A stretch of 64,000 nucleotides of DNA from Candidatus Falkowbacteria bacterium RIFCSPLOWO2_12_FULL_45_13 (GCA_001778055.1 MFFY01000061.1:515-64514); one strand, 5' to 3'; shown: positions 8,338-36,761, counted from the first letter of the stretch. The notes: generated by a model not told the origin, from the sequence alone. A program made the numbers and translations.

Positions 8338-8453
8338 AATAAAAATTTAAAATGTAAAAATTAAAATGTAAAATTATTGTAAAAATTACTCCGTAAAAAA
8401 AATTAAAATTTTTTTCACTCCATAATTTTTAATTTTAATTTTTACATTTTAAA

Positions 8454-10073: not shown

Positions 10074-11714
10074 TTATTTTATTAGATTCTTGCCCGTCAT
10101 TTCTTTGGGTTTTTTAATATTTAACAACTCCAGTATGGTCGGCGCGATATCGCCTAAAACTCCGCCATTTCTTAATTTGACTTTATGGCCAAGGTTTTTG
10201 TTGATTAATACAAAGGGTACCAGATTAGTTGAATGCTCGGTATTGATTTCACCGGTTTTTAAATTAATCATCTCCTCGATATTGCCATGATCAGCCGTCG
10301 CTAAAACTGTGCCGCCGACGTTCAAATAAGCCTTAACAATTTCGCCCAGACACTTATCAACCCCATGGCAGCATTTTATCGCGGCGTCCAGATTGCCCGT
10401 GTGGCCGACCATGTCGGGCGCGGCAAAATTCAAAACCGTAAAGTCATATTTCCAGTCTAAACCCTTTTTCTGGCCAATATAACCCCCCTGCTCCCCTTTC
10501 AAAAGGGGGTGAGGGGGGGTTAAATTGTTGACCACTGCCTCGGTCAACTCCGCCGAACTCATCGTCGGCGTCTGATCATACGATCTGACGTTGGGCGAAG
10601 GCACAAGGCGCCGCCCTTCCCTCGCGATCGGATCGGCATAGCCGCCGTTAAAAAAATAAGTCACATGAGCGTATTTTTCCGATTCGGCGATATATAATTG
10701 CGACAAACCTTTTAGCGCCTGCGGCAAAGTCTGTTTTAAATCGACGCTGGGATAAGCGGTTAAAATACCGTCTAAGTCCGGTCCAAAATCAGTCATGGCC
10801 ACGAACAACAAATTTTTTAATACTTTTTTTCTTAAAAAAGAACCGGGATTTAATCTATCAAAATCTTTTTGCACGAAAACCTTGGCGAATTGCCTGGCCC
10901 GATCCGATCTTAAATTAAAAAAGATAACGCCGTCGCCGTTGCCGATCCGGGGTAAGGGCCGGCCATTTCTGGTGATCACATAGGGCTCAATAAATTCGTC
11001 GCTTTCGCCGCGGTTATAACTTTCCATGATCGCGGCTTCCGGGCTGGCGGCTTTCCGGCCCAAGCCGCTCGTTAAAGCATCATAAGCTTTTTCGGTTCTC
11101 GACCAGGTTTTTTTTCTGTCCATGGCGTAATATCGGCCGACGACGGAAGCGATGGCTTCGCCGTTTTTAAAAACTTTTTGGATATCTTCGACCAATTTCA
11201 AAGAGGCATACCTAGGCGAATCCCGGCCGTCGGTGAATAAATGCAAATAAACTTCCTTGACTTTAGTTATTTTAACCAAAGACAGCAGAGCCAGCAAATG
11301 GTCCGGGTCGCTATGCGCGCTCATGCCATTGGAGATCATGCCCATTAGATGAAGCTTGGATTTATTCTTTTTGACCTGGCGGATCGCCTCGATAAAACCG
11401 GCATTTTTAAAAAAAGTCCCGTTATTAACGCTTTTAGAAATTTTAACTACGTCTTGCTCGACAATTCTGCCGGCGCCAATATTCATATGCCCGGCTTCAG
11501 AATTACCCGATTGGCTCGGCGGCAGGCCCACGGCCTTGCCGGAAGCATTGATTAAAGTATTGGGAAATTTTTTAATCAAGCCGTCCATAACCGCGGTATT
11601 GGCCAAGGTGATGGCATTACCCTGGCTCGGTTCAGCCATGCCCCAGCCGTCTAGGATGACCAGAATCATGGGTAAAACATTTTTAGCTGGCTTATTTAAC
11701 TTTTCTGGTTTCAT
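10074..11714 (-). CDS. gpmI: 2,3-bisphosphoglycerate-independent phosphoglycerate mutase (iPGM), paralog 2 (tandem duplicate, carries an in-frame palindromic insertion)
   Basis: 546 aa. ILVILDGWG, GNSEAGHMNIGAGR and PDMVGHTG motifs. The segment NNLTPPHPLLKGEQGGYIGQKKGLDWK has no counterpart in paralog 1 and is encoded by the palindromic element at 10483-10520. Confidence 0.9.
   Translation of the reverse strand: MKPEKLNKPAKNVLPMILVILDGWGMAEPSQGNAITLANTAVMDGLIKKFPNTLINASGKAVGLPPSQSGNSEAGHMNIGAGRIVEQDVVKISKSVNNGTFFKNAGFIEAIRQVKKNKSKLHLMGMISNGMSAHSDPDHLLALLSLVKITKVKEVYLHLFTDGRDSPRYASLKLVEDIQKVFKNGEAIASVVGRYYAMDRKKTWSRTEKAYDALTSGLGRKAASPEAAIMESYNRGESDEFIEPYVITRNGRPLPRIGNGDGVIFFNLRSDRARQFAKVFVQKDFDRLNPGSFLRKKVLKNLLFVAMTDFGPDLDGILTAYPSVDLKQTLPQALKGLSQLYIAESEKYAHVTYFFNGGYADPIAREGRRLVPSPNVRSYDQTPTMSSAELTEAVVNNLTPPHPLLKGEQGGYIGQKKGLDWKYDFTVLNFAAPDMVGHTGNLDAAIKCCHGVDKCLGEIVKAYLNVGGTVLATADHGNIEEMINLKTGEINTEHSTNLVPFVLINKNLGHKVKLRNGGVLGDIAPTILELLNIKKPKEMTGKNLIK
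10483..10520. repeat. In-frame palindromic element (C5-TGACAAGG-AGGG family) inside the gpmI paralog 2 coding sequence
   Basis: cccccctgctcccctttcaaaagggggtgagggggggt is a near-palindrome. Related copies occur in eno, gap and rarA and at two intergenic sites. Confidence 0.7.
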
Positions 11715-11732
11715 ATATTAAATACACAAAAT

Positions 11733-11925
11733 GACAGTCTTCCTGTCATTGCGAGCCCCGACGCTCTGGGTGGGGCGAAGCAATCTCACGTATGACTATA
11801 CCTCACTAAATCTCGTAATAATTTTATTATGATTATTCTTTACCGTTCGAGATTGCCCGCCCGACTGAACGTCGTTCGGGCGGGCTTCGTCGCTGGCGCT
11901 CCTCGCAATGACAGAAACTTTACAT
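11733..11925. repeat. MITE-like structured repeat, copy B (between eno and gpmI)
   Basis: Termini gtcattgcgag...ctcgcaatgac, internal gcaatctcacg...cg.gagattgc, and the perfect hairpin gcccgcccga...cgggcgggc. Confidence 0.7.
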
Positions 11926-11934
11926 TTTTAACTG

Positions 11935-13251
11935 TCATTTTAATTTTTGATTTTTGCATTTTAAATTTTCTTCAATCTCCATCAGCCTGTTATATTTCGC
12001 CAGCCTTTCTCCCCGCGACAGCGACCCGGCCTTAATGTAATCAGCCCCGACCGCCACGGCTAAATCAGCGATAAAGTCATCCGTAGTTTCGCCCGAGCGA
12101 TGCGAAACAATAATTTTATAATTATGCTTCTTGGCCAGTTTTACGCAGTCAACCGTTTCCGACAGGGTCCCGACCTGATTGGGTTTTATTAAAATAGCGT
12201 TAGCGGCGTTTTCTTTCAAGCCTCGCCTCAAGCGCTCCGGATTGGTGACGAACAAATCATCGCCGACCAGCATTACGTCCCGGCCAAGCTCTTTATTTAA
12301 TTTTTGCCAGCCGGCCCAATCGTCTTCAGCTAAACCGTCTTCAAGGTAAATTATCGGATACTTCCTAAACCATTCGTAATATAAGCCGGCTAAAGTAGCC
12401 GCGGTGTAACTGGCGCGATCCAGCTTAAAAACATACCTGCCGTTTCTCTGATTATAAAGTTGAGATGAGCCTACATCAATGCCTAAGGCTAAATCTGCCC
12501 CGGGTTTATAACCAGCTTTAATTGCGGCCGCCATAATTAATTCAATCGCCTGGATGCTGGAACTGATATCCGGCGCGTAGCCGCCTTCATTGCCCACATC
12601 CGTGTCATAGCCAGCTCTTTTTAAAACATCCCCTAAAGCATGAAAAATCTCCGCGCCCATTCTAACTTGTTCGGCAAAACTTCTTCTCCCCCCCCTGACA
12701 AGGAGGGCTGGGGGTGTTAAATAAGCCAGGGGAATTATCATAAATTCCTGAAAATCCAGGTTGGTATCGGCGTGCTTGCCGCCGTTAAAAATATTAAAAC
12801 ATGGAACAGGTAATTGGAAATTGGAAATTGGAAATTGGAAATTATTAGAGATATATTCATATAACTCCAGACCAGAAGCCAAGGCGCCGGCGCGGGCGCA
12901 AGCGAGCGACACGGGCAGGATCGCATTAGCGCCTAATTTACTTTTATTTTTTGTACCATCTAATTTTATCATGATATCATCAATCTCCGCCTGCTTGGTT
13001 ACTCCAGCTCCGATTAGCTTAGGCGCGATTTTGCTTTCAATATTTTTAATGGCATGCAAAACCCCCAAACCGCCGTATCTTTTAGCATCATTGTCCCGCA
13101 GTTCCACGGCTTCATGCGCGCCCGTAGACGCGCCCGCAGGCGCGCTGGCTTTTGCTTTAACGCCATTATCCAATAAAACCGTGGCTTCCACAGTGGGATT
13201 GCCGCGCGAATCTAAAATCTCACGAGTCGTTATTTTTTTTATTTTAGGCAT
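11935..13251 (-). CDS. eno: Enolase (phosphopyruvate hydratase)
   Basis: 438 aa. TTREILDSRGNPTVEA, SAPAGASTGAHEAVELRD, SHRSGETTD and the full enolase domain order. It also contains an in-frame 12-aa insertion and a 7-bp tandem repeat. Confidence 0.95.
   Translation of the reverse strand: MPKIKKITTREILDSRGNPTVEATVLLDNGVKAKASAPAGASTGAHEAVELRDNDAKRYGGLGVLHAIKNIESKIAPKLIGAGVTKQAEIDDIMIKLDGTKNKSKLGANAILPVSLACARAGALASGLELYEYISNNFQFPISNFQLPVPCFNIFNGGKHADTNLDFQEFMIIPLAYLTPPALLVRGGRRSFAEQVRMGAEIFHALGDVLKRAGYDTDVGNEGGYAPDISSSIQAIELIMAAAIKAGYKPGADLALGIDVGSSQLYNQRNGRYVFKLDRASYTAATLAGLYYEWFRKYPIIYLEDGLAEDDWAGWQKLNKELGRDVMLVGDDLFVTNPERLRRGLKENAANAILIKPNQVGTLSETVDCVKLAKKHNYKIIVSHRSGETTDDFIADLAVAVGADYIKAGSLSRGERLAKYNRLMEIEENLKCKNQKLK
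12686..12716. repeat. In-frame palindromic element (same family as 10483-10520) inside eno
   Basis: ctcccccccctgacaaggagggctgggggtg. It encodes the extra YLTPPALLVRGGRR relative to the canonical EFMIQPVGAKT...IRMG loop of enolase. Confidence 0.7.
12808..12844. repeat. Coding microsatellite: about 4.5 copies of a 7-bp unit (GGAAATT / AATTGGA) inside eno
   Basis: ggtaattggaaattggaaattggaaattggaaatta. It encodes NNFQFPISNFQ in the variable loop preceding the conserved LPVP. Confidence 0.85.
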
Positions 13252-13788: not shown

Positions 13789-14544
13789 TTACAAAATTTC
13801 ATACTCCACCGTGGCGATTATGATTATTTCATTACTGCCGGCCTCCACCGTTGGCCCTGCGCCACCGCCCAGGCCAGCAGCGGATTTTTCAAGCGCGTAA
13901 AACGGCTGCGGCGGATTGTCGCTGGACGATTCGCTGAAAGATATGACTTTCCCCAGTTTCACGCCCACTGCCTCTGCCAAGGTTTTGGCTTTTTCCTGGG
14001 CTTGCGCCAAAGCCTTCTCGCGCGCGGCCTGCTTCAACTGCTCCGGATTGTCAATTTCAAAACTTAAATTGCCGACTTGATTTAAGCCGATTACACCGGC
14101 CGCTTCAATAATACTGGAGACTCTGTCCATTTGCCTTAATTTTACGTTTAAGTTTTGGCTGACCAAGTAACCGCGTAAAGTTTGTTTGCCATCATTCCAA
14201 TCATACTGCGGCGAGATATAATAATTAGCCGTTTGAATATCTTTGGGGTCAATTTTAAAATCTTTTTTCAGTTTATCTATCATGGCGTTCATTTTATTGC
14301 TGTTGTCTTTCTGCGCCTCGGCCACAGTTTTTTTCTCAACCGAATAGCCTAATTGTATTTTGGCCACATCCGGCAAGCCGATAATTTTGCCCTCGCCCAT
14401 GATGCTGATAGAATGCGGTGTCTTGGGGCTGATGCCGATATAATCATGCGCCTTATACGCGTTCCAGGAAAGCAGCGCCAGATAAATTGAGCCAATCGTT
14501 AAAAATACGCCGATAAAAATTGTCACGATTTTGTTGGGAATCAT
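13789..14544 (-). CDS. SIMPL-domain (DUF541/BP26-like) secreted or membrane-anchored protein
   Basis: 251 aa. N-terminal TM/signal and C-terminal region NLSFEIDNPEQLKQAAREKALAQAQEKAKTLAEAVGVKLGKV, typical of SIMPL/BP26. Confidence 0.65.
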   Translation of the reverse strand: MIPNKIVTIFIGVFLTIGSIYLALLSWNAYKAHDYIGISPKTPHSISIMGEGKIIGLPDVAKIQLGYSVEKKTVAEAQKDNSNKMNAMIDKLKKDFKIDPKDIQTANYYISPQYDWNDGKQTLRGYLVSQNLNVKLRQMDRVSSIIEAAGVIGLNQVGNLSFEIDNPEQLKQAAREKALAQAQEKAKTLAEAVGVKLGKVISFSESSSDNPPQPFYALEKSAAGLGGGAGPTVEAGSNEIIIIATVEYEIL

Positions 14545-14592
14545 AAAATTAAATTAAAAATTAAAAAATCAAAATGAAAAATTAAGGTAAAA

Positions 14593-15747
14593 TTATTTCA
14601 CCAGACCTCTTAGCCCCGGCATCTCCTCGCCGCCCAAAAAGGCCAACATGGCGCCGCCGCCGGTCGACACCCAGTCAATATAATGACCCATCTTTGTCAT
14701 GTCAAGCGCCTCGACGGTCTCTCCGCCGCCCACGGCGCCGAAAGCCTGGCCGGTGGAGCGGGCGGCAACTAAGCGGGCCACGGATAAAGTGCCATGCTTA
14801 AAATGAATATTCTCAAAATATCCCATCGGGCCGTTCCAGACGATAGTATTGGCCTGTCGTATAAAATGCGCGAATAAATTAACGGTTTTCGGGCCGATAT
14901 CTAAAATTATATCCTTTTGCTGGACCTGATTAACCGCCCTGACCTGGACCTGATTGCTTTTAAAGTCGCCGGCCACCAGGACATCAACCGGCAGAATAAT
15001 ATTCTTATGGCGCTTGATTAGGCTGGCCGCGGCTCTTAAGCTAGCCTTATCGACGAGCGATTCGCCGATTTTAAATCCATGAGCGGCGATAAAATTGTTG
15101 GCCAGAGCGCCGCCGATCAAAACCCGATGTGATTTTTTGGCTAAGCTATTTAATAAAACGATTTTAGTTTCTATTTTGGCCCCGCCAATGATTGAAATTA
15201 GCGGCTGTTTCGGCCTTAAAACCTTTTCCAGATTTAAAATTTCTTTTTCCAGGAGCAGGCCGGCGAAGCTGGATAAATATTTTTTAATGGCGCTGACCGA
15301 AGCATGATTCCGGTGGCTCGAGGCGAAAGCGTCATTTACGTAAAGATTGGCTAAGGCCGCCAAACTTTTAGCAAGCTTATTATTATTTTTTACTTCGCCT
15401 GGCTCAAGACGTAAATTTTCCAAAAGTAAGATATCTTTAGCCGCCATTTTTTTTACCGCTTTTTCAACCTTATCGCCCACGCAACCGTTCACCAATCGCA
15501 CCTTTTTGTCCAATAATTGCGCCAACCTCTTGGCCACCGGTTTGGTTGACGCCCGGCTATCGGATAAATGGGTAGCGATAATCAAGCGGCAATTATGCCT
15601 TAACAAAAAACGAATCGTTGGCAAAATCATGACAATTTTATAATCATCCAGAACCGTCCTGTTTTTAATGGGCACATTCAAATCGGCGCGTAAAAAAACG
15701 ATTTTGCCGGCTAAATTATTGGCTCGCCTAATAGATTTAATTTTCAT
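14593..15747 (-). CDS. pgk: Phosphoglycerate kinase (the ORF is open up to 15903; likely true start is MKIKSIRR at 15747)
   Basis: Motifs KIVFLRADLNVP, ATHLS, and the C-terminal GGGETVEALD and STGGGAMLAFLGGEEMPGL. The 52-aa N-terminal extension has no homology to Pgk. Confidence 0.9.
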   Translation of the reverse strand: MKIKSIRRANNLAGKIVFLRADLNVPIKNRTVLDDYKIVMILPTIRFLLRHNCRLIIATHLSDSRASTKPVAKRLAQLLDKKVRLVNGCVGDKVEKAVKKMAAKDILLLENLRLEPGEVKNNNKLAKSLAALANLYVNDAFASSHRNHASVSAIKKYLSSFAGLLLEKEILNLEKVLRPKQPLISIIGGAKIETKIVLLNSLAKKSHRVLIGGALANNFIAAHGFKIGESLVDKASLRAAASLIKRHKNIILPVDVLVAGDFKSNQVQVRAVNQVQQKDIILDIGPKTVNLFAHFIRQANTIVWNGPMGYFENIHFKHGTLSVARLVAARSTGQAFGAVGGGETVEALDMTKMGHYIDWVSTGGGAMLAFLGGEEMPGLRGLVK

Positions 15748-17095: not shown

Positions 17096-17281
17096 AAATT
17101 CCTTAATGCCGCCTTGGCTAAATATTTATTCGCGGCCTACGCGCATATAACGCATGGATTATGCTAGAGCCTGTCTCAAAAATAGCTTTTAGTCATTTTT
17201 GAGATAGACTCTAGTTAATGATTTTAATTTTGCATTTTATTGATTCGTAATATTTGCAGCTGATTCGTAGATTTGCGGGGC

Positions 17282-18043
17282 CTACATCCACTTCGCCGTG
17301 GACAAGACTAATAATAAGCTGATTGATCCCAAAATTAAATACATTTTTACCTTGGCCGCGTCCAATTTTAGAAGTAAATGATTTTTAACCAGGCCGATAA
17401 CCACATAATAGCAAATCGCCAAGCTCAAGCCGGAAATATTATAATTAAACGGCAAAAAGGAAATTGACCAAAATAATTCAACCAAAATCAGGCAACTGAT
17501 TAAAATATAAGGCAAACTGGGCATCAGTTCTATCTTGTTGGCCCAAATTATCTGATAAACCAGCAAACTTGTCAAGCTTATCATAATGAGCACCAGCCAA
17601 GAAATCGGCAAGTTCAAAAAGGACGCCAGGCCGTAAACCGTGGCCGCCAGCAAAAAAAAGGTCAGCCAGTTGATATATGAGGAGATATTTTCTATGCTAA
17701 AAACTTCATAGGCCAAAGGGTTAAGCAAATAATAATAAACATACCGTAAATATAAATATAAAAAAACCAAATTAAAAAAATACAGTAGTTGAATAATAAG
17801 CTTAAAACTTAAAAAAACCGAATAGCTCATCACCGCCACGGACATAACGGCCGGCAAGATTAAGTAATTCCACCAGCGCTTATCAATTTCGCTGGTTTGG
17901 CTAAATTGCCAAACCGTGAAAAAAATCAGTAAATTTACCAAAACTGCGGCTACGTAAATCAGTTTCGGAGACAAATAATACATTTCTTCAAGTAAAAAAA
18001 CCAACGCCGGAATTATTAAGGGCAATAAACGATTAAGCTTCAT
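17282..18043 (-). CDS. Hypothetical polytopic membrane protein
   Basis: 253 aa, highly hydrophobic with many predicted TM helices. No recognisable family. Confidence 0.5.
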   Translation of the reverse strand: MKLNRLLPLIIPALVFLLEEMYYLSPKLIYVAAVLVNLLIFFTVWQFSQTSEIDKRWWNYLILPAVMSVAVMSYSVFLSFKLIIQLLYFFNLVFLYLYLRYVYYYLLNPLAYEVFSIENISSYINWLTFFLLAATVYGLASFLNLPISWLVLIMISLTSLLVYQIIWANKIELMPSLPYILISCLILVELFWSISFLPFNYNISGLSLAICYYVVIGLVKNHLLLKLDAAKVKMYLILGSISLLLVLSTAKWM

Positions 18044-18463: not shown

Positions 18464-18629
18464 ATAGAATAATTTAATAGTACTTACGCGCTCTCCAATA
18501 TTATCTAAAGTTAATAAAAATTGTTAATTTATGCCAACCAACTGTAATTACCCGCAAATCTACAAATCAGCTACGAATACTACCAATGCTATTCGTGATA
18601 TTCGTAGCTGATTTGTAGATTTGCGGGAG

Positions 18630-18971
18630 CTATATACCAAATTTTTTAGCTTCCATTTCCAGCCAATCGTTTATCGCTTCGTCCCATTTATAGGCTTTTA
18701 ATTTGTGGCTTTTTTCCTTCGGGCTGTAAACATATTCCACCACGGTCTCGGCGCCAAGACGGTTGGAATATTTGGTTTTTTTATCAATGACCGCCGGCTT
18801 GGTGATAAATTCTAATTTCATCCTGCCCAACGGGCCTTTAAAAATAATATATTCAACCTCAACGCCGCCTTGTTCTTCAAGGTATCGTTTTTCGCACTCT
18901 TCCACCTCATAATTATCTTTTATATTGCCGACGATTTGTTGCCATTTTTCTGACGTCATAAAATAAAGCAT
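18630..18971 (-). CDS. Hypothetical protein
   Basis: 113 aa ORF, no recognisable motifs. Confidence 0.45.
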   Translation of the reverse strand: MLYFMTSEKWQQIVGNIKDNYEVEECEKRYLEEQGGVEVEYIIFKGPLGRMKLEFITKPAVIDKKTKYSNRLGAETVVEYVYSPKEKSHKLKAYKWDEAINDWLEMEAKKFGI

Positions 18972-22445: not shown

Positions 22446-23150
22446 TTACACTCCAAATCGTCTCTTTCTCTCCGCGAATTCTTTAATGATCATATCCGCG
22501 TCCAGCTCCTCAAAATCGGGCCAATATTTTTTAATAAAAAATAATTCGCTGTAAGCCGCCTGCCACATCATAAAGCCGGACAGCCTTTGCTCGCCCGAAG
22601 TGCGCACAATTATATCCGGATCGCTTAAATCCCCGTTATATAAATATTTTTTTATCATGCCTTCATGCACTTGTTCCAATTCAACTTTATTTTTCATCAT
22701 TTTGCGCACGGCGTCAACGATTTCCGCCCGACCACCGTAATTTAAGCAAAAATTTATAATACCGCGTTTGTTGGCTTGAGTTTCGGCGATTATTTCCAGG
22801 CACTTGGCCGGCAAATCTCCGGGCAGTTCTTTCAGCCGACCGCTGATTAAGACTTTATAACCCTCTTTTTTGGCCTGTTCGCGCAAACTGAACTCAACCG
22901 CGTTTAAGAGCAGCTTCATCAAATAGTTTACTTCTTCCGGCTGCCGCTGCCAATTTTCCGTGGAAAAAGCGTAAAATGATAAAATTTTAACCCCGCGGGA
23001 AAAAAACCAGTCCGACGCCAGCTTTAATTTCTCGTAGCCCTTTTGATGGCCTTCAAAAGTCGGCAGGTTTCTTTCCTTGGCCCAGCGCCGGTTGCCATCC
23101 ATAATAATGCCGACATGAACGGGTATGTCTTGTTTCTTTTTTTCAGACAT
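22446..23150 (-). CDS. uppS: Undecaprenyl diphosphate synthase (isoprenyl transferase)
   Basis: 234 aa. HVGIIMDGNRRWA and FSTENWQR motifs. Confidence 0.9.
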   Translation of the reverse strand: MSEKKKQDIPVHVGIIMDGNRRWAKERNLPTFEGHQKGYEKLKLASDWFFSRGVKILSFYAFSTENWQRQPEEVNYLMKLLLNAVEFSLREQAKKEGYKVLISGRLKELPGDLPAKCLEIIAETQANKRGIINFCLNYGGRAEIVDAVRKMMKNKVELEQVHEGMIKKYLYNGDLSDPDIIVRTSGEQRLSGFMMWQAAYSELFFIKKYWPDFEELDADMIIKEFAERKRRFGV

Positions 23151-23342
23151 AAATAAAATTTCTAATTGTTCTAATTTCCCCGACCCGCATCGCGTTAAAT
23201 AGTCTGCTAATAATTATTCGTCTATATCTACTAAACAACTTAAATTGACAAACAAGTAAACGGCGAGCGAGGAAGGTTAATTGACCTAATAAAATTCCAA
23301 TGACCAAATCCCAATGACCAATAAAATTTCAAGCCCCAAGCC

Positions 23343-23909
23343 TTAATTGATTTTTTCCAAAGATTCGGCTACGGCCGGAGAAACGAACCCTCGATAAGCC
23401 TGGCTTCTAATCCTTTTCAAGAGCCTCTCCACTTCCAGCCGAGAATAGGCGTGCATGCCGTAAACCGTACCCATTTTCATTTTATCAGGTAAAATCGGCA
23501 GGCGATAAACCCGGCCTTCGGCCTCGGGCTGACTGTGGAAGATGATGCCCCGGGCGTAACCGGAGGTATTATTCACCGAAACGCTGGCGAAGGAAAGCAC
23601 CACGAGATAATTCAGTTCTAATTCCGGTTTTTCCACCAAGGGAATGGCGGAAATAATATTGGCATTAACGAAAAGCGGATGCTGGATAATCGAATGATGG
23701 TCGGCGGTCGAAATCAAAGGCAACCGGCCAAGCTGTCCGGCCACACCCGACGCCACCTCTTCACCCAATTTGACCGTCAACAGATCCCGGATAATTTTGA
23801 TCAATTGCGGTTTTCTGCTGTCTAAAAGCGGCATTGTATTGACATCGAGAAAATCTTTGGCGTATTCGTAAAGCGCCAGGTCTTTGTGCTGAGCCATGAT
23901 TTTCCCCAA
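23343..23909 (-). CDS. Hypothetical protein
   Basis: 188 aa ORF upstream of uppS. No recognisable family. Confidence 0.45.
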   Translation of the reverse strand: MGKIMAQHKDLALYEYAKDFLDVNTMPLLDSRKPQLIKIIRDLLTVKLGEEVASGVAGQLGRLPLISTADHHSIIQHPLFVNANIISAIPLVEKPELELNYLVVLSFASVSVNNTSGYARGIIFHSQPEAEGRVYRLPILPDKMKMGTVYGMHAYSRLEVERLLKRIRSQAYRGFVSPAVAESLEKIN

Positions 23910-27340: not shown

Positions 27341-27365
27341 TAAAATAAATTAAAAGTCAAAAAAA

Positions 27366-27395
27366 ATAACTTCGGATATCCGAAATTATTTTTTG
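27366..27395 (-). terminator. Rho-independent terminator hairpin (ttcggatatccgaa) with flanking U/A runs; likely terminates the hydA transcript
   Basis: aataacttcggatatccgaaattatttttt. The stem plus T-run reads as a terminator on either strand. Confidence 0.6.
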
Positions 27396-27545: not shown

Positions 27546-29501
27546 CTAACTTCTCTTTTTGTAGGTGGTATATAAAACGGTTTTTTCCAATTTCCCCTGC
27601 TTTTTTAGCCAACTTAAAGCCCCGATTGCTTCGTCGTTCTCGTGCGCTCTTCTTATTTTGCTAGCGCCGTCAATTTTATACAAAGCGGCCAATCTTTTTT
27701 TTCTTATTTCGGCCGTGGTGGGAATCGGCTGGCCGCCACCGCCGATACAACCGTCCGGGCAGGCCATAACTTCAATATAATCAAAATCTTTTAATTTATC
27801 TAAGATCGGTTGAATACTGCCAATGCCGTTTACCACCGCCACTCTGACTTTTTTTCCGCCCATCTCCAAATTTGCCGTTTTTACTCCTTCCTGACCGCGG
27901 ACATCTTTAAATTCAACTCTCTGGATCTCGGAATCGCCAAACCTGATTTTAGCTTCTAGGCCCAAATCACGACATACCCGGTCTTGGGCCGTGGCCATCA
28001 AATAAGCGGCGGTCCTCAGGGCTGATTCCATTACGCCTCCCGTGGCGCCGTAGATCGCGCCGGCTCCGCTCGCCGTCCCAAGTGGATTATCCGCCCGTTC
28101 CGCTTTCAAACTTTTAAAATCTATCTTATTTTTCTTGATCAACCAGGCTAATTCGCGGGTAGTTAGGCAATAATCAATCGGCCAATCGCCTCTGATCTTA
28201 AGTTCTTTGCGGCTAGACTCAAACTTCTTGGCCGTACAAGGCATGATTGACACGACCACGATGTTCTTTGGCTTGATTTTTCGGCCCGAGGCCGATCCGC
28301 CTTGGGCGGACATTTTCTCGGCCCAATAAGTTTTAATAATGCCGGCGCTATGCATCTGCGGACTGCGCGCCGTGGTCATGTTAGGAATTAAGTCGGGACG
28401 GAAAAATTCCACATATTTTATCCAGGCCGGGCAACAGGAGGTAAACATGGGCAAATTAGAAATTGGCGTGACCTTACCAAATTTCAAATTTCTAATTTCT
28501 AGTTTCTTGTCTTCATGGTTTAATAACCTCTCTCTTATTTTTAATCTCTCAATTAACTCTTCCGCCTCAACAATGGTGGTAACGTCGGCGCCGAAATTAA
28601 CGTCGAAAACGTAGGCGAAACCCAATTTTTTCAAAGCCGCCACCACCTGGCCGGTCATGACCCTTCCGGTTTCAACGCCAAATTCTTCGCCAATGCTGAC
28701 CCTAATAGAAGGGGCTATCTGAGCGACCAATACCTCGGACTTGTTTTTAAGCGCTTTCTCCACGAGGTGCCAATCGGCCTGCTCCTGCGCCGCCCCGACC
28801 GGACAATGCAAGGCGCACTGGCCGCAATAGATGCAATCGACCTTTCTCCTGTCCGCTTTGGCGAAAGCGAAAACGCCCTTTTCCGTTACCGGTACAATTT
28901 CCTGAGCCACGCCCTTACCCCTTAGTTCCAGATAATTTATTTTCTGCAAATCATTGCAGGCCTCCAGGCAATTCCGGCAATCAATGCATTGGCTAGAGTC
29001 AATTTCCACGGCATTGGCGAATTTATATGTTTGCCTCTTGCCTTTACGATCTTTAAATCTGCAAATTTCAATTTTATACCTTTCGGCCAATTCCAGCAGC
29101 TTGCAGTTAACCCGCCAAATGCAAGTCGGGCATTTTTCAATATGCTCGGCGAATATCAATTCAATATTTAAATTGCGCGAACGTTTGACTCTGGTCGTAT
29201 CGGTTTTTATTTCCATGCCGGCTTTGACTTTTGTATCGCATGCCGTCACCAGCCTGGCCTGCGCCGACTTCGGCGCCTTCATCCCGAAGTCAGGCCGAAG
29301 AGAGCTCGGTTGAACCGAGTCCGCCGAATACGCCACCTCTACCACGCAAATCCGGCAATTGGCTTTAACCGAAAAATCAGGATGATAACAGAGATTAGGC
29401 AACATCATGCCGTTATCTTGAGCCACCCGCATGATAGTCGCGCCTTCATCGCAGATGATTTCTTTGCCGTCTAAATATATTTTAACTTTTTTATCAGTCA
29501 T
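27546..29501 (-). CDS. hydA: [FeFe]-hydrogenase catalytic subunit (HydA/HndD-like) with N-terminal 2Fe-2S and multiple 4Fe-4S domains
   Basis: 651 aa. H-cluster motifs L1 TSCCPAW, L2 MPCTAKKFE, L3 EVMACPDGCIGGGGQP. N-terminal NuoG-like 2Fe-2S domain (CRICVVEV) and ferredoxin-type CxxCxxCxxxCP motifs. Confidence 0.9.
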   Translation of the reverse strand: MTDKKVKIYLDGKEIICDEGATIMRVAQDNGMMLPNLCYHPDFSVKANCRICVVEVAYSADSVQPSSLRPDFGMKAPKSAQARLVTACDTKVKAGMEIKTDTTRVKRSRNLNIELIFAEHIEKCPTCIWRVNCKLLELAERYKIEICRFKDRKGKRQTYKFANAVEIDSSQCIDCRNCLEACNDLQKINYLELRGKGVAQEIVPVTEKGVFAFAKADRRKVDCIYCGQCALHCPVGAAQEQADWHLVEKALKNKSEVLVAQIAPSIRVSIGEEFGVETGRVMTGQVVAALKKLGFAYVFDVNFGADVTTIVEAEELIERLKIRERLLNHEDKKLEIRNLKFGKVTPISNLPMFTSCCPAWIKYVEFFRPDLIPNMTTARSPQMHSAGIIKTYWAEKMSAQGGSASGRKIKPKNIVVVSIMPCTAKKFESSRKELKIRGDWPIDYCLTTRELAWLIKKNKIDFKSLKAERADNPLGTASGAGAIYGATGGVMESALRTAAYLMATAQDRVCRDLGLEAKIRFGDSEIQRVEFKDVRGQEGVKTANLEMGGKKVRVAVVNGIGSIQPILDKLKDFDYIEVMACPDGCIGGGGQPIPTTAEIRKKRLAALYKIDGASKIRRAHENDEAIGALSWLKKQGKLEKTVLYTTYKKRS

Positions 29502-29588
29502 AATCAGTCATGTTTTTGCAAATTCATAATTGCCTAACAAATCAACGAATTAACTACGAATATCACGAATAATATAATTGAAAAATAA

Positions 29589-30668
29589 TTATTTTAGTAT
29601 TTGTATATTCGTTGTAAAATTCGTTGATTCGTTAGCCTGGTTGATTTGTGGGTAGACATTCTTTAAAAAGCTTCTGATCGGCACAGGCACCGAGCAGCCC
29701 AGGGCGCAAACCGAAGTATCGGCCAGATTGTCCAATAAATTATTAAACAAGACCCAGTCGGTTTTTCCCGCCAGAAAAACCTCGCCCAATCTAAAAGTTC
29801 CTTCGCGGCAGGGCGCGCATTGCCCGCAAGATTCGCTCATAAAAAAATTAAGCCAAGACTTAATGATTTTTTTATAATTATTCTTTGTGATGCTGTAAAT
29901 AGTGATGGAACCCGCGCCCTGAACCGATCTTTTTAACTGTCGGCTATTTAAAACTTCGCCGGCCGCGCCGCCGCCACATTGGACAAAAAAAGGAAATTTA
30001 GGATAATTTTTTGTCGCTTTTAATATTTTCTCAATGCTAAAACTTTCCGGCAAATCATAAACTCCCTCCCGCGGGCAATCGCCGGTCAGGCTGTAAAATC
30101 TTTTATTTTCATATCGATTGGCTTCAACCAGGCTGACATTATAAAAAGTTTCAACGTTATTCACTAAGGTGGGGCAGCCCCACAGGCCGGCGGTGGTGGG
30201 AAACGGCGGTTTTAACCTAGGCTCGACCCTTCGACCTTCAATGGCGTTTAAAATCGCGCTTTCCTCGCCGCCGATATAACCGGCGTTCGGCGGCTTAACG
30301 AAGATTTCAATAACAGAAGATTTCAACAGAACGGTTAATTTTTTTTTCAATTTTTTATTATAACCGTAGTTTAAAAATAAATAACCTTTTACAACTCCCT
30401 TGTCCGCCGAGGCTTTAGCGTAGGCGGATAAAAAATCAACGGCGATTTTCATGCCGTTAATCACCTGATCCGCGTGATGCTCTAAAATATAATCATCTTT
30501 GATCACGCCCGGTTCGCCTTCAGCCGCGTTACAGACCACATAGCATTTTTTTTCGCCTGCTTTATCCGCCAGAGCCTGAGCGACGGCAGACCACTTTTTC
30601 GCCACCGGAAAGCAGGCGCCACCGCGCCCGACCAGACCGGCTAGTTTTATTTTTTCCAGGATATCCAT
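29589..30668 (-). CDS. NuoF-like NADH-binding FMN flavoprotein subunit (hydrogenase HydB/HndC-like, short form)
   Basis: 359 aa. GLVGRGGACFPVAKKW, YVVCNAAEGEPG, GYIGGEESAILNAIEGRRVEPRLKPPFP, PTLVNNVETF, ESCGQCAPCREG. It lacks the N-terminal NuoE-like and C-terminal ferredoxin extensions of full HydB. Confidence 0.8.
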   Translation of the reverse strand: MDILEKIKLAGLVGRGGACFPVAKKWSAVAQALADKAGEKKCYVVCNAAEGEPGVIKDDYILEHHADQVINGMKIAVDFLSAYAKASADKGVVKGYLFLNYGYNKKLKKKLTVLLKSSVIEIFVKPPNAGYIGGEESAILNAIEGRRVEPRLKPPFPTTAGLWGCPTLVNNVETFYNVSLVEANRYENKRFYSLTGDCPREGVYDLPESFSIEKILKATKNYPKFPFFVQCGGGAAGEVLNSRQLKRSVQGAGSITIYSITKNNYKKIIKSWLNFFMSESCGQCAPCREGTFRLGEVFLAGKTDWVLFNNLLDNLADTSVCALGCSVPVPIRSFLKNVYPQINQANESTNFTTNIQILK

Positions 30669-30906
30669 GACAAAAAATTTAAAGTTGAAAAATCAAAATG
30701 AAAAATGACCATGTAAAATTTAAAATTATTAATTCAGACATTTTTCATTTTAAATTGTCATTTTACAATTTGCCTGCCTCGCTCGCCGTTTTATTGTTTA
30801 TTAATCATAAATGTTCGTTAGATATTATCAGCGATTATTAACAGACAAATTAACGCGAGGCGGGCCGGGGAGATTTACATTTTGCATTTCTAAACAAAAA
30901 GATAAT

Positions 30907-32034
30907 TTACAACAACTTCTTTTTTCCAATATACTCGCATAAATCCGCCAATCGGCAGGAATAGCCCCACTCGTTATCATACCAAGCGATTATTTTCAAA
31001 AGATCGCCGTCAATAACCTTGGTTAAAGGCAAATCAACGATGGCGCTGTTTGCGTTGCCGATAAAATCGGAAGAAACCAGCGGTTCTTCCGTTACCGCCA
31101 CGTAACCTTTATAATCGCCGGCCGCGGCTTTTTTTATCGCTTGATTAACCGCCTCGGCGGTAACCGATTTTTCCGTAAGATACACGATATCGCACAAGGA
31201 CACCACCGGCGTGGGCAGGCGCAAGGCCAGGCCATCAAATTTTCCGGCCAGCTCCGGAATAGTTTTAGCCGTGGCTTTGGCCGCGCCGGTCGTGGTCGGC
31301 ACGATATTTAGGCCGGCCGCGCGAGCTCGGCGCAAATCCTTATGCGGCCCGTCCACTAAATTTTGACCAGCCGTATAAGAATGCGCGGTAGACATAATGG
31401 CCTTTTTAACGCCGAAATTGTCTCTAACTATTTTCGTTACCGGAGCCAAACAATTGGTGGTGCAGGAAGCCATGGAAATAATTTTGTCATCTTTAGTTAA
31501 ATCTTTTTCATTAACCGACAAAACAATAGTTTTAATAGCCTCTCCCCCTGACAAGAGGGAGCTGGAGGGGGTTTTTTCTTTAGCGGGCTTGCCCGCCGTA
31601 GCTTTTTTATCCGCCAAAGCCTTGGCGTCGGCGGAAGCGGAGGCGGGCGCCGACAAAATCACTTTTGTAGCACCGGCTTCAAGATGCTGTCCGGCGCCAA
31701 GCGCGTCCAGAAATCTGCCGGTGCATTCCAAAACAATATCCACCTTCAGTTTACCCCAGGGCAATCTGGCCGGCTCTTTTTCCTTGAGCACCCGATATTT
31801 TTTACCGCCAACCATCAAATTATCGGCTTCTGCCGCAACTTTTTTTTCATAAGTTCCATAACAGCTATCGTGCTGTAAGAGATGCGCCAGCGTCTTGGTG
31901 TCCGTCAAATCATTTATTGCCGCCACATTTATCCCCTTTTTATTTAACAAGGCTTTAAAAGCGGCCCGGCCGATCCGGCCGAAGCCATTGATGGCGATGT
32001 TCACCCCGTTAGATATTGGCATATATTTTTTCAT
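30907..32034 (-). CDS. gap: Glyceraldehyde-3-phosphate dehydrogenase (type I) with an internal insertion of about 30 aa
   Basis: 375 aa. INGFGRIGR, active site ASCTTNCLAPV, WYDNEWGYS. The Ala/Lys-rich insertion ...ASADAKALADKKATAGKPAKEKTPSSSLLSGGEAI is encoded partly by the palindrome at 31541-31572. Confidence 0.95.
   Translation of the reverse strand: MKKYMPISNGVNIAINGFGRIGRAAFKALLNKKGINVAAINDLTDTKTLAHLLQHDSCYGTYEKKVAAEADNLMVGGKKYRVLKEKEPARLPWGKLKVDIVLECTGRFLDALGAGQHLEAGATKVILSAPASASADAKALADKKATAGKPAKEKTPSSSLLSGGEAIKTIVLSVNEKDLTKDDKIISMASCTTNCLAPVTKIVRDNFGVKKAIMSTAHSYTAGQNLVDGPHKDLRRARAAGLNIVPTTTGAAKATAKTIPELAGKFDGLALRLPTPVVSLCDIVYLTEKSVTAEAVNQAIKKAAAGDYKGYVAVTEEPLVSSDFIGNANSAIVDLPLTKVIDGDLLKIIAWYDNEWGYSCRLADLCEYIGKKKLL
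31541..31572. repeat. In-frame palindromic element (C5-TGACAAG-AGGG family) inside gap
   Basis: tctccccctgacaagagggagctggagggggt. Nearly identical core to the eno copy. Confidence 0.7.
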
Positions 32035-32243
32035 GATCTCCGCCAGACCCTAATATCTAACGGGGTTCATATTTTTTAGGTTAAAAGTTATGAAATTATT
32101 ATATCATATTAAAGCCCACTTTAACAAAGGTGATCGTTTTGTCCCCCTTCCAAAGTCCTTAATTTATGTCCAGCAAATTAAATAATTTTTACTTAAATTA
32201 CAATAAAAAAAACAGCTTCAAGCTGTTTTTTTTTCCGCTCTAA

Positions 32244-35164: not shown

Positions 35165-35182
35165 AATTGTTTTCCTTTTCTC

Positions 35183-35397
35183 CAGCCCCAGTTTTTATGG
35201 ATAAACGAAAAGCTTAAAACTAATCAACGACGACTCAAACTCAAAATATGGTCAATTTTTCCACGAAAACTGGAGCTGGGTTAGCCTCTACTCCGAATCG
35301 TCCAGACCCAGTTTCCGCGAATAATAATCGAGAACTGTCTGATCGGCAGTTTCCATATATTCAATAATAGCAAATTATTTTTGGAAACTGGGGCTGG
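35183..35397 (-). promoter_or_regulatory. Candidate rpsB 5' leader: five copies of a 13-15 bp motif (GGAAACTGGRGCTGG) in alternating orientation, predicted to form long hairpins
   Basis: Motif copies at about 35183-97 (rc), 35265-80 (+), 35303-17 (rc), 35345-57 (rc, partial) and 35383-97 (+), immediately upstream of the rpsB start. Confidence 0.4.
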
Positions 35398-35709
35398 ACA
35401 AGGAAATTTAATGGAGTATGAGAGATTAATTTAATAAAAATTTATTCCCACCTGCTGGCAAACAAATACCTTTAGCAGGTTATTTTAACCACAAAAATAG
35501 ACTATAATATTATTTAGGGTTTGTCAACCTCAAAAACGAAAATTCCTTAGCCGCTTTGTCTGACGACAGCACCTCAAATTTTCATCCTGTTAACAGGAGT
35601 TTAATTCTCCTAAAAGCCCATCTTGGTATTTTTCGTTACGGGATTTAAAAAAGCCCGACAAACTCCGAATAATCGGCTGTCGAGCTTAGACGGAAAGGGA
35701 GGATTCCTC

Positions 35710-35961
35710 TTATTCTCCCTCTCCTTGCAGGTATTCGTAGGTGTACCCGACAATGGTACTCACTTTCCACCCGTGCCGGGGAGCAAAACGTTTCGGAATA
35801 GGTCTCCCGATGCGTACCGCGATTTGCCCAAAGAGCTGGTCAGCCTCCCCCTTTTTAAGCTCCGTGCTGTCATTGACATTTGTAATGAGCCACCCTCTGG
35901 ACTCTGCCACCATGCTCTGCACGAGCATCCGAATACGTCCTTTCGTAATGGCGTTATTCAT
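35710..35961 (-). CDS. Hypothetical small protein (83 aa)
   Basis: ORF with an AGGAAAG-like ribosome-binding site. Locally elevated GC. No recognisable family. Confidence 0.25.
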   Translation of the reverse strand: MNNAITKGRIRMLVQSMVAESRGWLITNVNDSTELKKGEADQLFGQIAVRIGRPIPKRFAPRHGWKVSTIVGYTYEYLQGEGE

Positions 35962-36096
35962 TTCTTTCCTTTCTCGTTTGTTCTTCGCGCCATTGCGGAG
36001 AAACCTTGATTTAAATGATATGTTTTATTCGTCTTTTTGTCAACATCTTTTTGTCAACTCTTGCCAAAAATAATTTTATATGTTAAGGTAAAATCT

Positions 36097-36624
36097 GACA
36101 AATAAAACAAGGCTTGTGAATTTCATCAAGGAAAATTCGCTTACCGGGCGGTACTGGCGCGAAGCCATGTCATTAAAAGACTATACCTCGTTCAAATTAT
36201 TTTAAGGGAGGTAGACATGCTCCCCATGCTTTCCGGTAAGCGTCGATCTTTTTAAGCTTGGGTCTGGTTTTGGCGGAACGGTAGACGCACGGACATAGTC
36301 CGGTATGCCACAAGTTGGATTTAACGACATGTCAAGCCCGCATAGCTTGTGCCATTGTGGGTTCAACTCCCATAAGCTAGACCAATTTGGGCCAACGGAT
36401 GACTTTCGAATTTACTGCTAGGGGGTAGCGACCATCCCCGGACAAAACGCATAGTCAGATCCGATCTGACTCCCAAGGGTTCATACCCCAAGGGATATGC
36501 GCGGGTAAATCCGATTGTCTATCCGCTGGCCCCTAATTTGTGAGCATTGATTGCCGATCCTCCCGTCCACGCCCTGACAAAGTGGCCGACAGAAAAGGAC
36601 ATGGCAGGCTGACTCAATGCTCAC
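36097..36624 (+). ncRNA. Candidate structured ncRNA region (about 540 bp, no ORFs, GC-rich): an internal tRNA-like T-arm/acceptor ending ...GTGGGTTCAACTCCCATAAGCTAGACCA at 36384, a preceding tRNA-Leu-like D-arm GGCGGAACGGTAGACGC, and a closed 85-nt hairpin domain at 36540-36624. Identity unresolved (tmRNA, RNase P RNA or other)
   Basis: A putative promoter (TTGCCA, 17 nt spacer, TATATG) lies at about 36060-36095. T-loop TTCAACT with 3' ...ACCA. Terminal 11-bp inverted repeat gtgagcattga / tcaatgctcac. I could not pair a canonical 5' acceptor strand by eye. Confidence 0.3.
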
Positions 36625-36761
36625 TTCCTTAATTAAGCTCACAAGCCGTAAAAAAAATTCACCAAAAATTATTTCGCAGTTTCGCGTATTTAATCGTTAC
36701 ATTATTCGCATATTCACGGCATTCGCTGTATTCGCTTTAAATTCGTTATTTATTCGTATTT

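Follow-up and report, generated by a model that had tools for sequence, protein, structure and literature searches.

The locus described here appears, on balance, to encode a minimal, non-bifurcating, NADH-linked [FeFe]-hydrogenase of two subunits, HydA and a short NuoF-like flavoprotein (hereafter HydB-min), which is genetically tied to GAPDH. Because many relatives carry this same block of three genes, the enzyme probably disposes of glycolytic NADH as H2. The block lies in a 64-kb window, by which we mean the whole stretch of DNA that was analysed, from Candidatus Falkowbacteria (Patescibacteria/CPR), a tiny groundwater bacterium. Its three genes are consecutive on the minus strand, the nuoF-hydA spacer being 87 bp long:

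30907-32034, minus strand: gap, type I GAPDH, 375 aa
30669-30906, minus strand: gap-nuoF spacer, 238 bp
29589-30668, minus strand: NuoF-like gene (hydB-min), flavoprotein, 359 aa
27546-29501, minus strand: hydA, M3-type [FeFe]-hydrogenase catalytic subunit, 651 aa

A previous, sequence-only reading of this DNA had placed gap immediately upstream of the NuoF-like gene and hydA, and both its coordinates and its gene content held. No nuo gene other than the NuoF-like one was found in the window. A fermentative gene set is present there (pgk, eno, two copies of gpmI, and ackA), and few obvious NADH-consuming pathways are seen.

The gap product scores above the type I GAPDH cutoff (TIGR01534, 396.9 bits versus 367.2) and contains the Gp_dh_N and Gp_dh_C Pfam domains. 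Its motifs are NGFGRIGR (16-23), IND (40-42), which presumably denotes NAD specificity, the catalytic SCTTNC (190-195) and HSYT (218-221). The GAPDH of relatives measures 334-352 aa, versus 375 aa here; an Ala/Lys-rich stretch at about residues 133-165, placed by eye, appears to explain the extra length.

HydA is a complete group A catalytic subunit

With TIGR02512, HydA obtained 417.7 bits, above the group A cutoff of 405.95. Pfam matches were Fer2_4, NADH-G_4Fe-4S_3, two Fer4, Fe_hyd_lg_C (273.6 bits) and Fe_hyd_SSU, which gives the layout [2Fe-2S] domain, His-ligated [4Fe-4S], 2x[4Fe-4S], H-domain and C-terminal small-subunit-like tail. The H-cluster motifs, read against the group A patterns TSCCPxW (L1), MPCxxKxxE (L2) and ExMxCxxGCxxGGGQP (L3), are TSCCP at 354-358, MPCTAK at 420-425 and EVMACPDGCIGGGGQP at 577-592. 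Accessory Fe-S ligands are C38/C49/C52/C88, H120/C124/C127/C133, C172/175/178/182 and C223/226/229/233, and all ligands are invariant in 69 sequences (the window HydA and 68 relatives). The three motifs claimed at the outset are thus present with their Cys ligands on alignment, which disposes of the objection that these might be missing, and the NuoG-like N-terminus proposed at the same time is borne out. Four insertions specific to this genome were also seen (58-79, 324-344, 398-407 and 507-514).

By sequence, the nearest counterparts of HydA belong to multimeric, NADH-linked enzymes. Among the NCBIfam models NF040763, "NADH-dependent group A6", fits best, its 580 bits falling short of the cutoff of 765. 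Of the solved structures, the nearest homologues are the HydA chains of the bifurcating HydABC/Bfu enzymes (T. maritima 7p5h, A. woodii 7q4v/8a5e, T. kivui 8a6t), with T. kivui HydA1 (8a6t_A) first at 409 bits, versus 311 for Clostridium pasteurianum CpI. The latter (group A1, M3) shares the domain architecture and ligands of HydA, but is monomeric, ferredoxin-dependent and devoid of a flavoprotein partner.

HydB-min is reduced to an FMN/NADH core and one cluster

Only two Pfam domains were matched in HydB-min, Complex1_51K (residues 7-179) and NADH_4Fe-4S (268-342); there was no match to 2Fe-2S_thioredx, Fer4 or SLBB. The protein therefore consists of an FMN/NADH-binding core and a single [4Fe-4S] of the N3/B1 type (C281, C284, C287, C321), and NuoE-like, [2Fe-2S] and 2x[4Fe-4S]/ferredoxin-like domains are absent by Pfam. 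This is the short partner, free of NuoE-like and ferredoxin domains, that the first reading had described and for which it had proposed a Pfam analysis. Recognisable motifs are GRGGACFP (14-21), EGEPGVIKD (50-58), GYIGGEE (130-136) and ESCGQCAPCREG (279-290) together with C321, and the four cluster cysteines are the only invariant ones across 80 sequences.

The start of the protein is displaced relative to NuoF. The NuoF equivalog model TIGR01959 aligns from model position 37 to 406 (of 410) with 193 bits, the cutoff being 558.65, and alignments to PDB chains begin at about residue 42-54 of NuoF. The 359-aa ORF is maximal, so that no longer N-terminus is possible, and the N-terminal 40-50 or so residues of NuoF are missing throughout the family. 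HydB-min has neither the score, nor the full N-terminal domain, nor the nuo operon context of NuoF (complex I 51-kDa). An AF2 model was of moderate quality (pTM 0.77, pLDDT 73), poor in cofactor loops; with Foldseek it gave TMq of 0.69-0.78 against NuoF/HydB/HoxF/FdsB chains, and the NuoF-fold core of bifurcating HydB superposes on it with TMq 0.72-0.77.

Signature residues that separate bifurcating from non-bifurcating beta subunits were defined by Losey et al. 2020 (PMC7311640). HydB-min agrees with the non-bifurcating type in three of these four criteria: K57 is a non-bifurcating residue (K/S/A, versus M in bifurcating enzymes), residue 131 is Tyr and not the Phe of bifurcating enzymes, and residues 232-237 read GGGAAG, not GGPSG. 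The exception is V55, neither T/S (non-bifurcating) nor A/E (bifurcating). The lack of extra Fe-S domains also fits the non-bifurcating type, in which such domains are few. None of the bifurcating signatures (NADH-site A/E and M, FMN-site Phe, GGPSG) is found.

These residues bear on whether the enzyme might instead be a group A3 (Bfu-type) hydrogenase, bifurcating or confurcating, which uses NADH and reduced ferredoxin together. The likeness of HydA to its counterparts in bifurcating enzymes (T. kivui, A. woodii) speaks for it, as do context-based schemes, which name any HydA beside a NuoF-like gene "A3" (PMC5520028) and would for that reason so label this one. But the Bfu family is made of a five-cluster BfuB and BfuC (PMC9304861). 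HydB-min, with its one cluster, has neither the N-terminal [2Fe-2S] nor the C-terminal 2x[4Fe-4S] domains of BfuB/HydB, no BfuC was found in the window or in 95 related loci, and the Met, Phe and GGPSG signatures are missing. A bifurcating enzyme is therefore very unlikely, and we keep to a non-bifurcating one.

The two-gene arrangement is conserved in Patescibacteria

Relatives of HydB-min form at least 120 90%-identity clusters (328-394 aa, 57-74% identity) with the common N-terminus MDIL.KIK..LVGRGG, some 30 of the best-matching 50%-identity clusters are short forms, and a genome scan gave up to 399 species genomes with tblastn-confirmed matches. From these alignments HydB-min is a conserved Patescibacteria family, not a truncation. 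A pseudogene or truncation artefact was considered and rejected, given the uniform start, the invariant ligands at 48-74% identity and exact copies on 9 contigs.

Gene order was examined in the best 80 loci. The short nuoF is followed by hydA in all 68 loci with at least 2.2 kb of flank; upstream of the short nuoF, gap is found in 59 of 66 loci, at a spacing of 30 bp or less in 22. Overlapping stop and start codons are frequent in the blocks of relatives. Among the same 80 loci rpsB is nearby in 30 and cca in 32; across species-level Patescibacteria genomes, the succession of gap, short nuoF and hydA is better kept than the surrounding synteny. Natural fusions of the short NuoF with HydA also exist, P0265 (918 aa, 3 contigs) and P0253 (885 aa, one contig), each a singleton 90% cluster; in both, the short NuoF is joined straight onto the HydA [2Fe-2S] domain, and no NuoE module lies between.

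On the strength of this conservation, the two-subunit arrangement is the standard form within Patescibacteria. It had been called atypical, which is correct with respect to characterised enzymes but not within this group, where the block is conserved. The same data bear on the proposal that HydA works by itself and depends on ferredoxin, as a group A1 hydrogenase like CpI, the NuoF-like protein being unrelated in role. The M3 architecture shared with monomeric CpI is compatible with this, but the succession of short nuoF and hydA in 68/68 loci and fusions that put the NuoF C-terminus directly on the HydA [2Fe-2S] domain argue against it, and we hold it to be highly improbable. HydA and HydB-min are, rather, predicted to form a complex in this organism.

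The open-access full texts searched gave no account of a gap-nuoF-hydA block in Patescibacteria, nor of a HydB that lacks NuoE, which does not prove the finding unpublished; [FeFe] hydrogenases are unmentioned in a survey of CPR metabolism (PMC7304191).

Search for a NuoE/HydC subunit

The NuoE-type Cys pattern Cx4Cx25-50Cx3C was found in no ORF of the 64-kb window, whose ORFs were also read by eye, and a scan for such Cys patterns in 95 related loci, flanks of 8-10 kb included, likewise returned no NuoE-type ORF. The absence of an adjacent HydC/NuoE gene, pointed out in the sequence-only reading, thus extends to these loci. Neither the window nor the 95 loci yielded a long HydB. Two candidates were discarded: a 128-aa ORF between gap and nuoF in the relative L007/L008 is a Cys-free multi-pass membrane protein, and a gene of about 250 aa between nuoF and hydA in about 25 relatives encodes a UPF0259/YciC-like membrane protein.

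A standard trimeric, HydABC-type enzyme could still be made if a NuoE-like HydC were encoded elsewhere in the genome. All characterised NuoF-type subunits do pair with a NuoE-like subunit or fused domain, as in HydC, the Syntrophus aciditrophicus HydB fusion and the Woesearchaeota trimers (PMC7311640, PMC8421398). Against a trimer stand the lack of a NuoE-type ORF within 8-10 kb in 95/95 loci, the fusions devoid of a NuoE module, and the uniform lack of the N-terminal 40-50 or so NuoF residues in the HydB-min family. To our knowledge, complex I genes are generally absent from Patescibacteria, which we also count against it. We consider the trimer unlikely, and expect a NuoE partner to be absent from the whole genome.

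Predicted signals around the block

The following sites were noted in and around the block:

32205-32233, minus strand: terminator-like hairpin and T-run, between a PSP1-like gene and gap (consensus match only)
32098-32127, minus strand: promoter-like site TTGTTA-18-TATAAT with upstream TG, 64 bp 5' of the gap start codon (consensus match only)
30831-30804 and 30754-30725: weak promoter-like sites in the gap-nuoF spacer
27361-27394, minus strand: AT-rich terminator-like hairpin and T-run, between hydA and the CCA-adding enzyme gene (consensus match only)

The two hairpins are the likely upstream and downstream boundaries of the unit, respectively; that at 27361-27394 was also found as a palindrome. 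No intrinsic terminator was matched in the gap-nuoF spacer, where a GC-rich 60-nt element (30766-30825) recurs at 23224-23283 and an AT-rich repeated element, of which an inverted partner copy is present, lies directly 5' of the nuoF start. The corresponding spacer in relatives is often -24 to +4 bp. With 238 bp and promoter-like AT-rich elements, co-transcription with gap is less certain here than in relatives; co-regulation of nuoF-hydA with gap may nevertheless be expected.

Maturation genes are found on another contig

As had been reported for this window, the hydEFG maturases are absent from it: tblastn found none of HydG, HydE and HydF in the 64 kb, and no radical-SAM motif occurs in a real ORF. 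For the maturases, the check outside the window that the same reading proposed was positive: HydF homologues led to a hydG-hydE-hydF operon, which lies on a different contig of this MAG and is assigned to the Falkowbacteria organism by MAG binning and NCBI name. HydF is A3H66_02830 (score 303.7, just below the NCBIfam cutoff of 325.55), and immediately 5' of its gene are hydG (557.8 bits) and hydE (330.5 bits). In two relatives (L033 and L042), hydG-hydE-hydF stands directly 3' of hydA. A HydG-like protein from Rifle Falkowbacteria (P0159) was discarded as evidence for [FeFe] maturation because it lies within a [NiFe] group-3b-like cluster. With hydE, hydF and hydG all present, [FeFe] maturation is, from gene content, available to the window HydA.

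Proposed mechanism and comparison with known enzymes

NADH from the adjacent NAD-type GAPDH would bind HydB-min, whose specificity for NADH we infer, and reduce FMN. Electrons would leave FMN singly to the [4Fe-4S] of HydB-min (the N3/B1 equivalent), then enter HydA at its N-terminal [2Fe-2S] and go on by way of its His-ligated [4Fe-4S] and its two [4Fe-4S] to the H-cluster, where protons would be reduced to H2. There would be no ferredoxin site and no bifurcation, so that the reaction should be favourable only at a low H2 partial pressure, with neighbours consuming H2. The coupling of glycolytic NADH to H2 proposed earlier is strengthened by the conserved gap-nuoF-hydA order and the natural fusions.

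The opposite physiological role, H2 uptake with formation of NADH by the same two-subunit enzyme, must also be weighed. Oxidation of H2 with NAD+ is the thermodynamically favoured direction under standard conditions, which counts for this role, and such enzymes are reversible in vitro (PMC7311640). However, the tight linkage is to gap, the NADH-producing step, and the window combines the fermentative genes listed above with few obvious NADH-consuming pathways. H2 uptake is thus improbable, and catalysis would be directed towards H2.

The HydAB of S. aciditrophicus is non-bifurcating and makes H2 from NADH without ferredoxin (Losey et al. 2020, PMC7311640); like the present pair, it has two polypeptides, few Fe-S domains and, V55 of HydB-min apart, non-bifurcating signatures in the beta subunit. 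Its HydB is, however, a NuoE-like [2Fe-2S] module fused to the NuoF core (residues 177-585), whereas the 359-aa HydB-min has no NuoE-like part. Syntrophomonas wolfei Hyd1ABC is also non-bifurcating, NADH-dependent and ferredoxin-independent, as we propose here, and its HydB has no extra clusters, but it is a trimer with a separate NuoE-like gamma subunit (HydC). For both enzymes, production of H2 from NADH only is feasible below about 60 Pa H2 (PMC7311640).

Bifurcating HydB differs from HydB-min by its N-terminal [2Fe-2S], C-terminal 2x[4Fe-4S] and bifurcation residues, and its HydC has no equivalent at the locus. The proposed wiring is that of the complex I N-module (NuoE-NuoF-NuoG), from FMN to N3, [2Fe-2S] N1b and the His-ligated [4Fe-4S], with a NuoG-like HydA N-terminus; unlike that module, the present pair has no NuoE/N1a at the locus and lacks NuoF residues ~1-45. 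Group A3 clusters of DPANN/Woesearchaeota (PMC8421398; PMC11216029) similarly belong to small-genome symbionts and contain a nuoF-like gene with only FMN, SLBB and 4Fe-4S domains, but according to their descriptions they include a nuoE-like gene and are trimeric.

Implications

As far as sequence can tell, HydA/HydB-min is unable to bifurcate in the way that is known, and estimates of H2 production in CPR-rich groundwater built on A3 labels would then be wrong in kind. The NuoE/HydC part is present in all characterised relatives; its absence from the two-protein enzyme would be the new element, the kind of enzyme being known. HydA and HydB-min amount to about 1000 residues in two chains, sometimes one. 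A broader proposal, to which we give even chances, is that the NuoE-free NuoF module is a plug-in NADH dehydrogenase in Patescibacteria, and that, with HydA, it makes up the smallest NADH:H+ oxidoreductase known, which is wired to GAPDH and serves glycolysis as its main redox valve.

A NuoF-type flavoprotein that works free of any NuoE-like partner would put the debated role of NuoE/N1a in complex-I-type modules to a natural test. For the engineering of H2 production, an [FeFe]-hydrogenase driven by NADH and encoded by two genes would be an appealing minimal part. For the organisms themselves, the conserved gap-hydB-hydA block offers a concrete, testable answer to how glycolytic NADH may be reoxidised in many Patescibacteria and, if this is true, these symbionts would depend, syntroph-like, on H2-consuming neighbours.

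The gap-nuoF-hydA block

Three consecutive genes, all on the minus strand, make up the block:

30907-32034, minus strand, gap, 375 aa
29589-30668, minus strand, gene of the short NuoF-like flavoprotein (HydB-min), 359 aa
27546-29501, minus strand, hydA, 651 aa

The spacers measure 238 bp (gap-nuoF) and 87 bp (nuoF-hydA). The gap product is a type I GAPDH (NCBIfam, 396.9 against a cutoff of 367.2). It is 23-41 aa longer than its relatives, with, by eye, an Ala/Lys-rich stretch at approximately residues 133-165; stretches of this look were also seen in MgsA-like, PrmC-like, iPGM-like and enolase-like ORFs.

HydA is a group A [FeFe]-hydrogenase (NCBIfam TIGR02512, 417.7 against a cutoff of 405.95); its top NCBIfam model, "NADH-dependent [FeFe] hydrogenase, group A6", scored 580 bits, under the model cutoff of 765. 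Pfam domains are Fer2_4, a His-ligated NADH-G_4Fe-4S_3, two ferredoxin-type 4Fe-4S motifs, Fe_hyd_lg_C (273.6 bits) and a C-terminal Fe_hyd_SSU tail. Ligand sets are complete for the [2Fe-2S] cluster (C38/C49/C52/C88), the His-ligated [4Fe-4S] cluster (H120/C124/C127/C133), two further [4Fe-4S] clusters (C172/175/178/182 and C223/226/229/233) and the H-cluster (C356-C357, C422, C581, C585).

The flavoprotein contains only Complex1_51K (7-179) and NADH_4Fe-4S (268-342) by Pfam, and NCBIfam makes it only a distant NuoF, aligned to positions 37-406 of the 410 in the model at 193 bits (cutoff 558.65). Its ORF is maximal, so that the short N-terminus is no start-codon artefact. The [4Fe-4S] ligands C281/C284/C287/C321 are present, as are the FMN and NADH loops (GRGGACFP, EGEPGVIKD, GYIGGEE). 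The AlphaFold2 model (pLDDT 73, pTM 0.77) predicts the NuoF fold of NfnB, HydB, HoxF, NuoF/Nqo1 and FdsB (TMq 0.69-0.78). Compared with 68-79 relatives, this genome has its own insertions in HydA (residues 58-79, 324-344, 398-407, 507-514) and in the flavoprotein (36-40, 84-88). Three claims of the sequence-only reading, gap directly upstream of the two other genes, a complete H-cluster and a short NuoF-like partner, were thus borne out by coordinates, Cys ligands and domain content, respectively.

Conservation, linkage and fusions

The flavoprotein is identical to A3H66_02005 of Candidatus Falkowbacteria bacterium RIFCSPLOWO2_02_FULL_45_21, and was found unchanged, with the same neighbours, on 9 independent contigs. 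When one genome per GTDB species was scanned, 399 matches were confirmed by tblastn; the best 80 (48-74% identity) carry, with few exceptions, record titles of Patescibacteria, Falkowbacteria or Parcubacteria; "uncultured Gammaproteobacteria", on many titles among the family matches, is probably a placeholder label. Full-length members among the best 120 clusters have 328-394 aa and 57-74% identity, and all share the N-terminus MDIL.KIK..LVGRGG. Among 1.84 billion representatives, searched exhaustively without a profile, about 30 short-form clusters rank first, and long, NuoE-fused or NuoF-length forms appear only under ~200 bits.

Of the 80 species loci, 68 have at least 2.2 kb of flank, and every one of these has hydA downstream in the same orientation; gap is upstream in 59 of the 66 with at least 1.3 kb. 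The gap-nuoF distance is at most 700 bp in 51 of these 59 loci and at most 30 bp in 22; stop and start codons of the two genes overlap in many loci. The flanking genes (rpsB-tsf-PSP1 and cca-PPIase) are scarcer, with rpsB in 30/80 and cca in 32/80 loci, which argues that the triad is kept beyond background synteny.

Two independent natural single-chain fusions were found, P0265 (918 aa) and P0253 (885 aa); the former is present on three contigs, immediately downstream of pyruvate kinase. Both run from the short NuoF through a few residues to the HydA [2Fe-2S] domain and the remaining HydA, without a NuoE module. These fusions are the strongest available evidence for a complex in which the [4Fe-4S] bundle of the flavoprotein would lie beside the HydA N-terminus; that the NuoF-like protein has an unrelated role is hardly credible. 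A third protein found in the search of representatives, P0263 (702 aa), joins the short NuoF module to Oxidored_q6, the 20-kDa small-subunit type of NiFe-hydrogenase and complex I, which suggests that the NuoE-less module is reused with other hydrogenase types.

Near hydA, relatives carry a TM1266-like putative regulator (~40 matches among related loci) and a 177-179-aa multi-pass membrane protein (~60 matches). The latter has a weak ECF_trnsprt match and probably corresponds to the "hyd6TM" of PMC11216029. Both genes lie downstream of hydA in the examples inspected. Regions of related loci with such hydrogenase-linked genes include:

L033, 14722-15553
L007, 12780-13946
L071, 9061-9804

In ~25 loci a ~250-aa UPF0259/YciC-like membrane protein separates nuoF from hydA. 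None of these three genes is adjacent to hydA in the window.

Probable lack of a NuoE subunit and of bifurcation

No NuoE-type Cx4C...Cx3C protein was found in the 64 kb, by reading ORFs of at least 110 aa and by a six-frame pattern scan, in line with the earlier claim that no HydC/NuoE gene is adjacent; nor was a NuoE-type ORF found within 8-10 kb in any of 95 related loci. A NuoE subunit encoded elsewhere in the genome is therefore an improbable alternative, though one that keeps some weight. The two-subunit arrangement is indeed atypical relative to characterised enzymes: the non-bifurcating ones retain the NuoE-like module, as a separate subunit in S. wolfei Hyd1ABC or a fused domain in S. 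aciditrophicus HydAB (PMC7311640), whereas the Patescibacteria form would lack it. Woesearchaeota clusters are described as trimeric (PMC8421398).

Members of the bifurcating Bfu/HydABC family have, by definition, a five-cluster BfuB and a BfuC (Schut et al. 2022, PMC9304861), both missing here. Residues were compared with those of Losey et al. 2020 (PMC7311640). At the NADH site, non-bifurcating enzymes have T/S + K/S/A and bifurcating ones A/E + M; the flavoprotein has V55 and K57, K57 being invariant in the family alignment. At the FMN site (Tyr in non-bifurcating, Phe in bifurcating enzymes) it has an invariant Y131, and in the SLBB region, where bifurcating enzymes have GGPSG and non-bifurcating ones do not, GG[DGN]A[S]G. 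V55 thus matches neither state, and the other three of the four positions are of the non-bifurcating type; true electron bifurcation is very improbable.

Maturation

As noted from the sequence, no hydEFG lies in the window: tblastn with the maturases of a relative found no HydG/E/F in the 64 kb, and neither ORF reading nor a six-frame pattern scan revealed a radical-SAM ORF. In L033 and L042, hydA is directly followed by hydG, hydE, hydF, the TM1266-like gene and the 177-179-aa membrane protein gene. For the organism of the window, a HydF match was found, A3H66_02830 (Candidatus Falkowbacteria bacterium RIFCSPLOWO2_02_FULL_45_21), with hydG (TIGR03955, 557.8 bits) and hydE (TIGR03956, 330.5 bits) directly upstream. 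Its contigs resemble the window in G+C without overlapping it, and one stems from a sample that also yielded an exact copy of the window locus. The search for hydEFG elsewhere in the genome, proposed earlier, thus found these genes, provided that the binning is correct.

In two Rifle Falkowbacteria loci (L097 6865-14430, L098 3543-11108), a HydG-like protein of the radical-SAM type, P0159 (65% identity to a bona fide HydG), is encoded inside a [NiFe] group-3b-like cluster (beta, gamma, small and large subunits, HypA, and a HypC::radical-SAM fusion). This context may point to an unusual route of ligand maturation in a NiFe enzyme. With pgk-SIMPL-gpmI-gpmI immediately downstream, the cluster is a second example of hydrogenase genes tied to those of glycolysis.

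Neighbouring genes, transcription signals and repeats

Glycolytic and fermentative genes read from translations, pgk, eno, two tandem gpmI and ackA, share the strand of the block. The gpmI pair encodes paralogous cofactor-independent phosphoglycerate mutases (by eye):

8454-10049, minus strand, gpmI
10074-11714, minus strand, gpmI

It sits in an ackA-gpmI-gpmI-eno-(pilin-like)-SIMPL-pgk block (identities by eye), and the duplication is also present in L097/L098.

By consensus matching only, terminator-like hairpins come after the PSP1-like gene and after hydA, and a good promoter-like site precedes gap; the gap-nuoF spacer contains weak AT-rich promoter-like sites and no terminator. Two repeated elements occur in this spacer:

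30669-30720, 8338-8385, 14545-14593 and 2-39, AT-rich element; inverted partners at 30739-30793, 11916-11970 and 43-97
30766-30825 (minus strand) and 23224-23283 (plus strand), 60-nt element with GC-rich core GGCGAGCGAGGnAGG, its two arms 75% complementary

The AT-rich element, approximately TAATTTTwCATTTTGATTTTTnCAwTTTAAATTTTT then ATG, often with an inverted copy nearby, lies directly 5' of the starts of nuoF, ackA and ORF 13789-14544 (SIMPL/DUF541-like, judged by eye and against L097). Fermentation genes may share this element as a promoter or in their 5'-UTR, so that nuoF-hydA may have its own promoter in this genome besides read-through from gap. The second copy of the 60-nt element lies between ORFs 22446-23150 and 23343-23909. 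A 132-aa ORF at 1901-2299 (minus strand) resembles, by eye, an IS200/IS605-type Y1 transposase (TnpA); related repeats (families D7/D12, I4/I7/I8) occur at 2362-2486, 17229-17287, 18551-18635 and 29533-29572, the last in the nuoF-hydA spacer.

A ~550-nt stretch (36100-36650), in the 1.6-kb gene-poor region 35165-36761 between rpsB and rpmE, folds more stably than all of 100 shuffles (z = -7.8 on the plus and -7.5 on the minus strand). It includes a tRNA-like T-arm with ACCA (GTGGGTTCAACTCCCATAAGCTAGACCA); Rfam, searched up to E<=1, and ARAGORN (tRNA/tmRNA) gave no match. The stretch is not kept in the equivalent spacer of relatives, and two independent assemblies of the organism (L001, L003) break off at about window position 35717. 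Possible explanations are a strain-variable insertion and a structured RNA not yet described.

Predicted role of the block

The block is not described in the open-access literature searched, an absence that is no proof of novelty. H2 uptake as its physiological role is unlikely. We favour, with moderate confidence, a minimal, non-bifurcating, NADH-linked HydA/HydB-min hydrogenase. It would oxidise the NADH derived from GAPDH, and the electrons would leave as H2 at low ambient H2. Since the characterised enzymes retain a NuoE-like module, the Patescibacteria form would be a known functional type reduced one step further.
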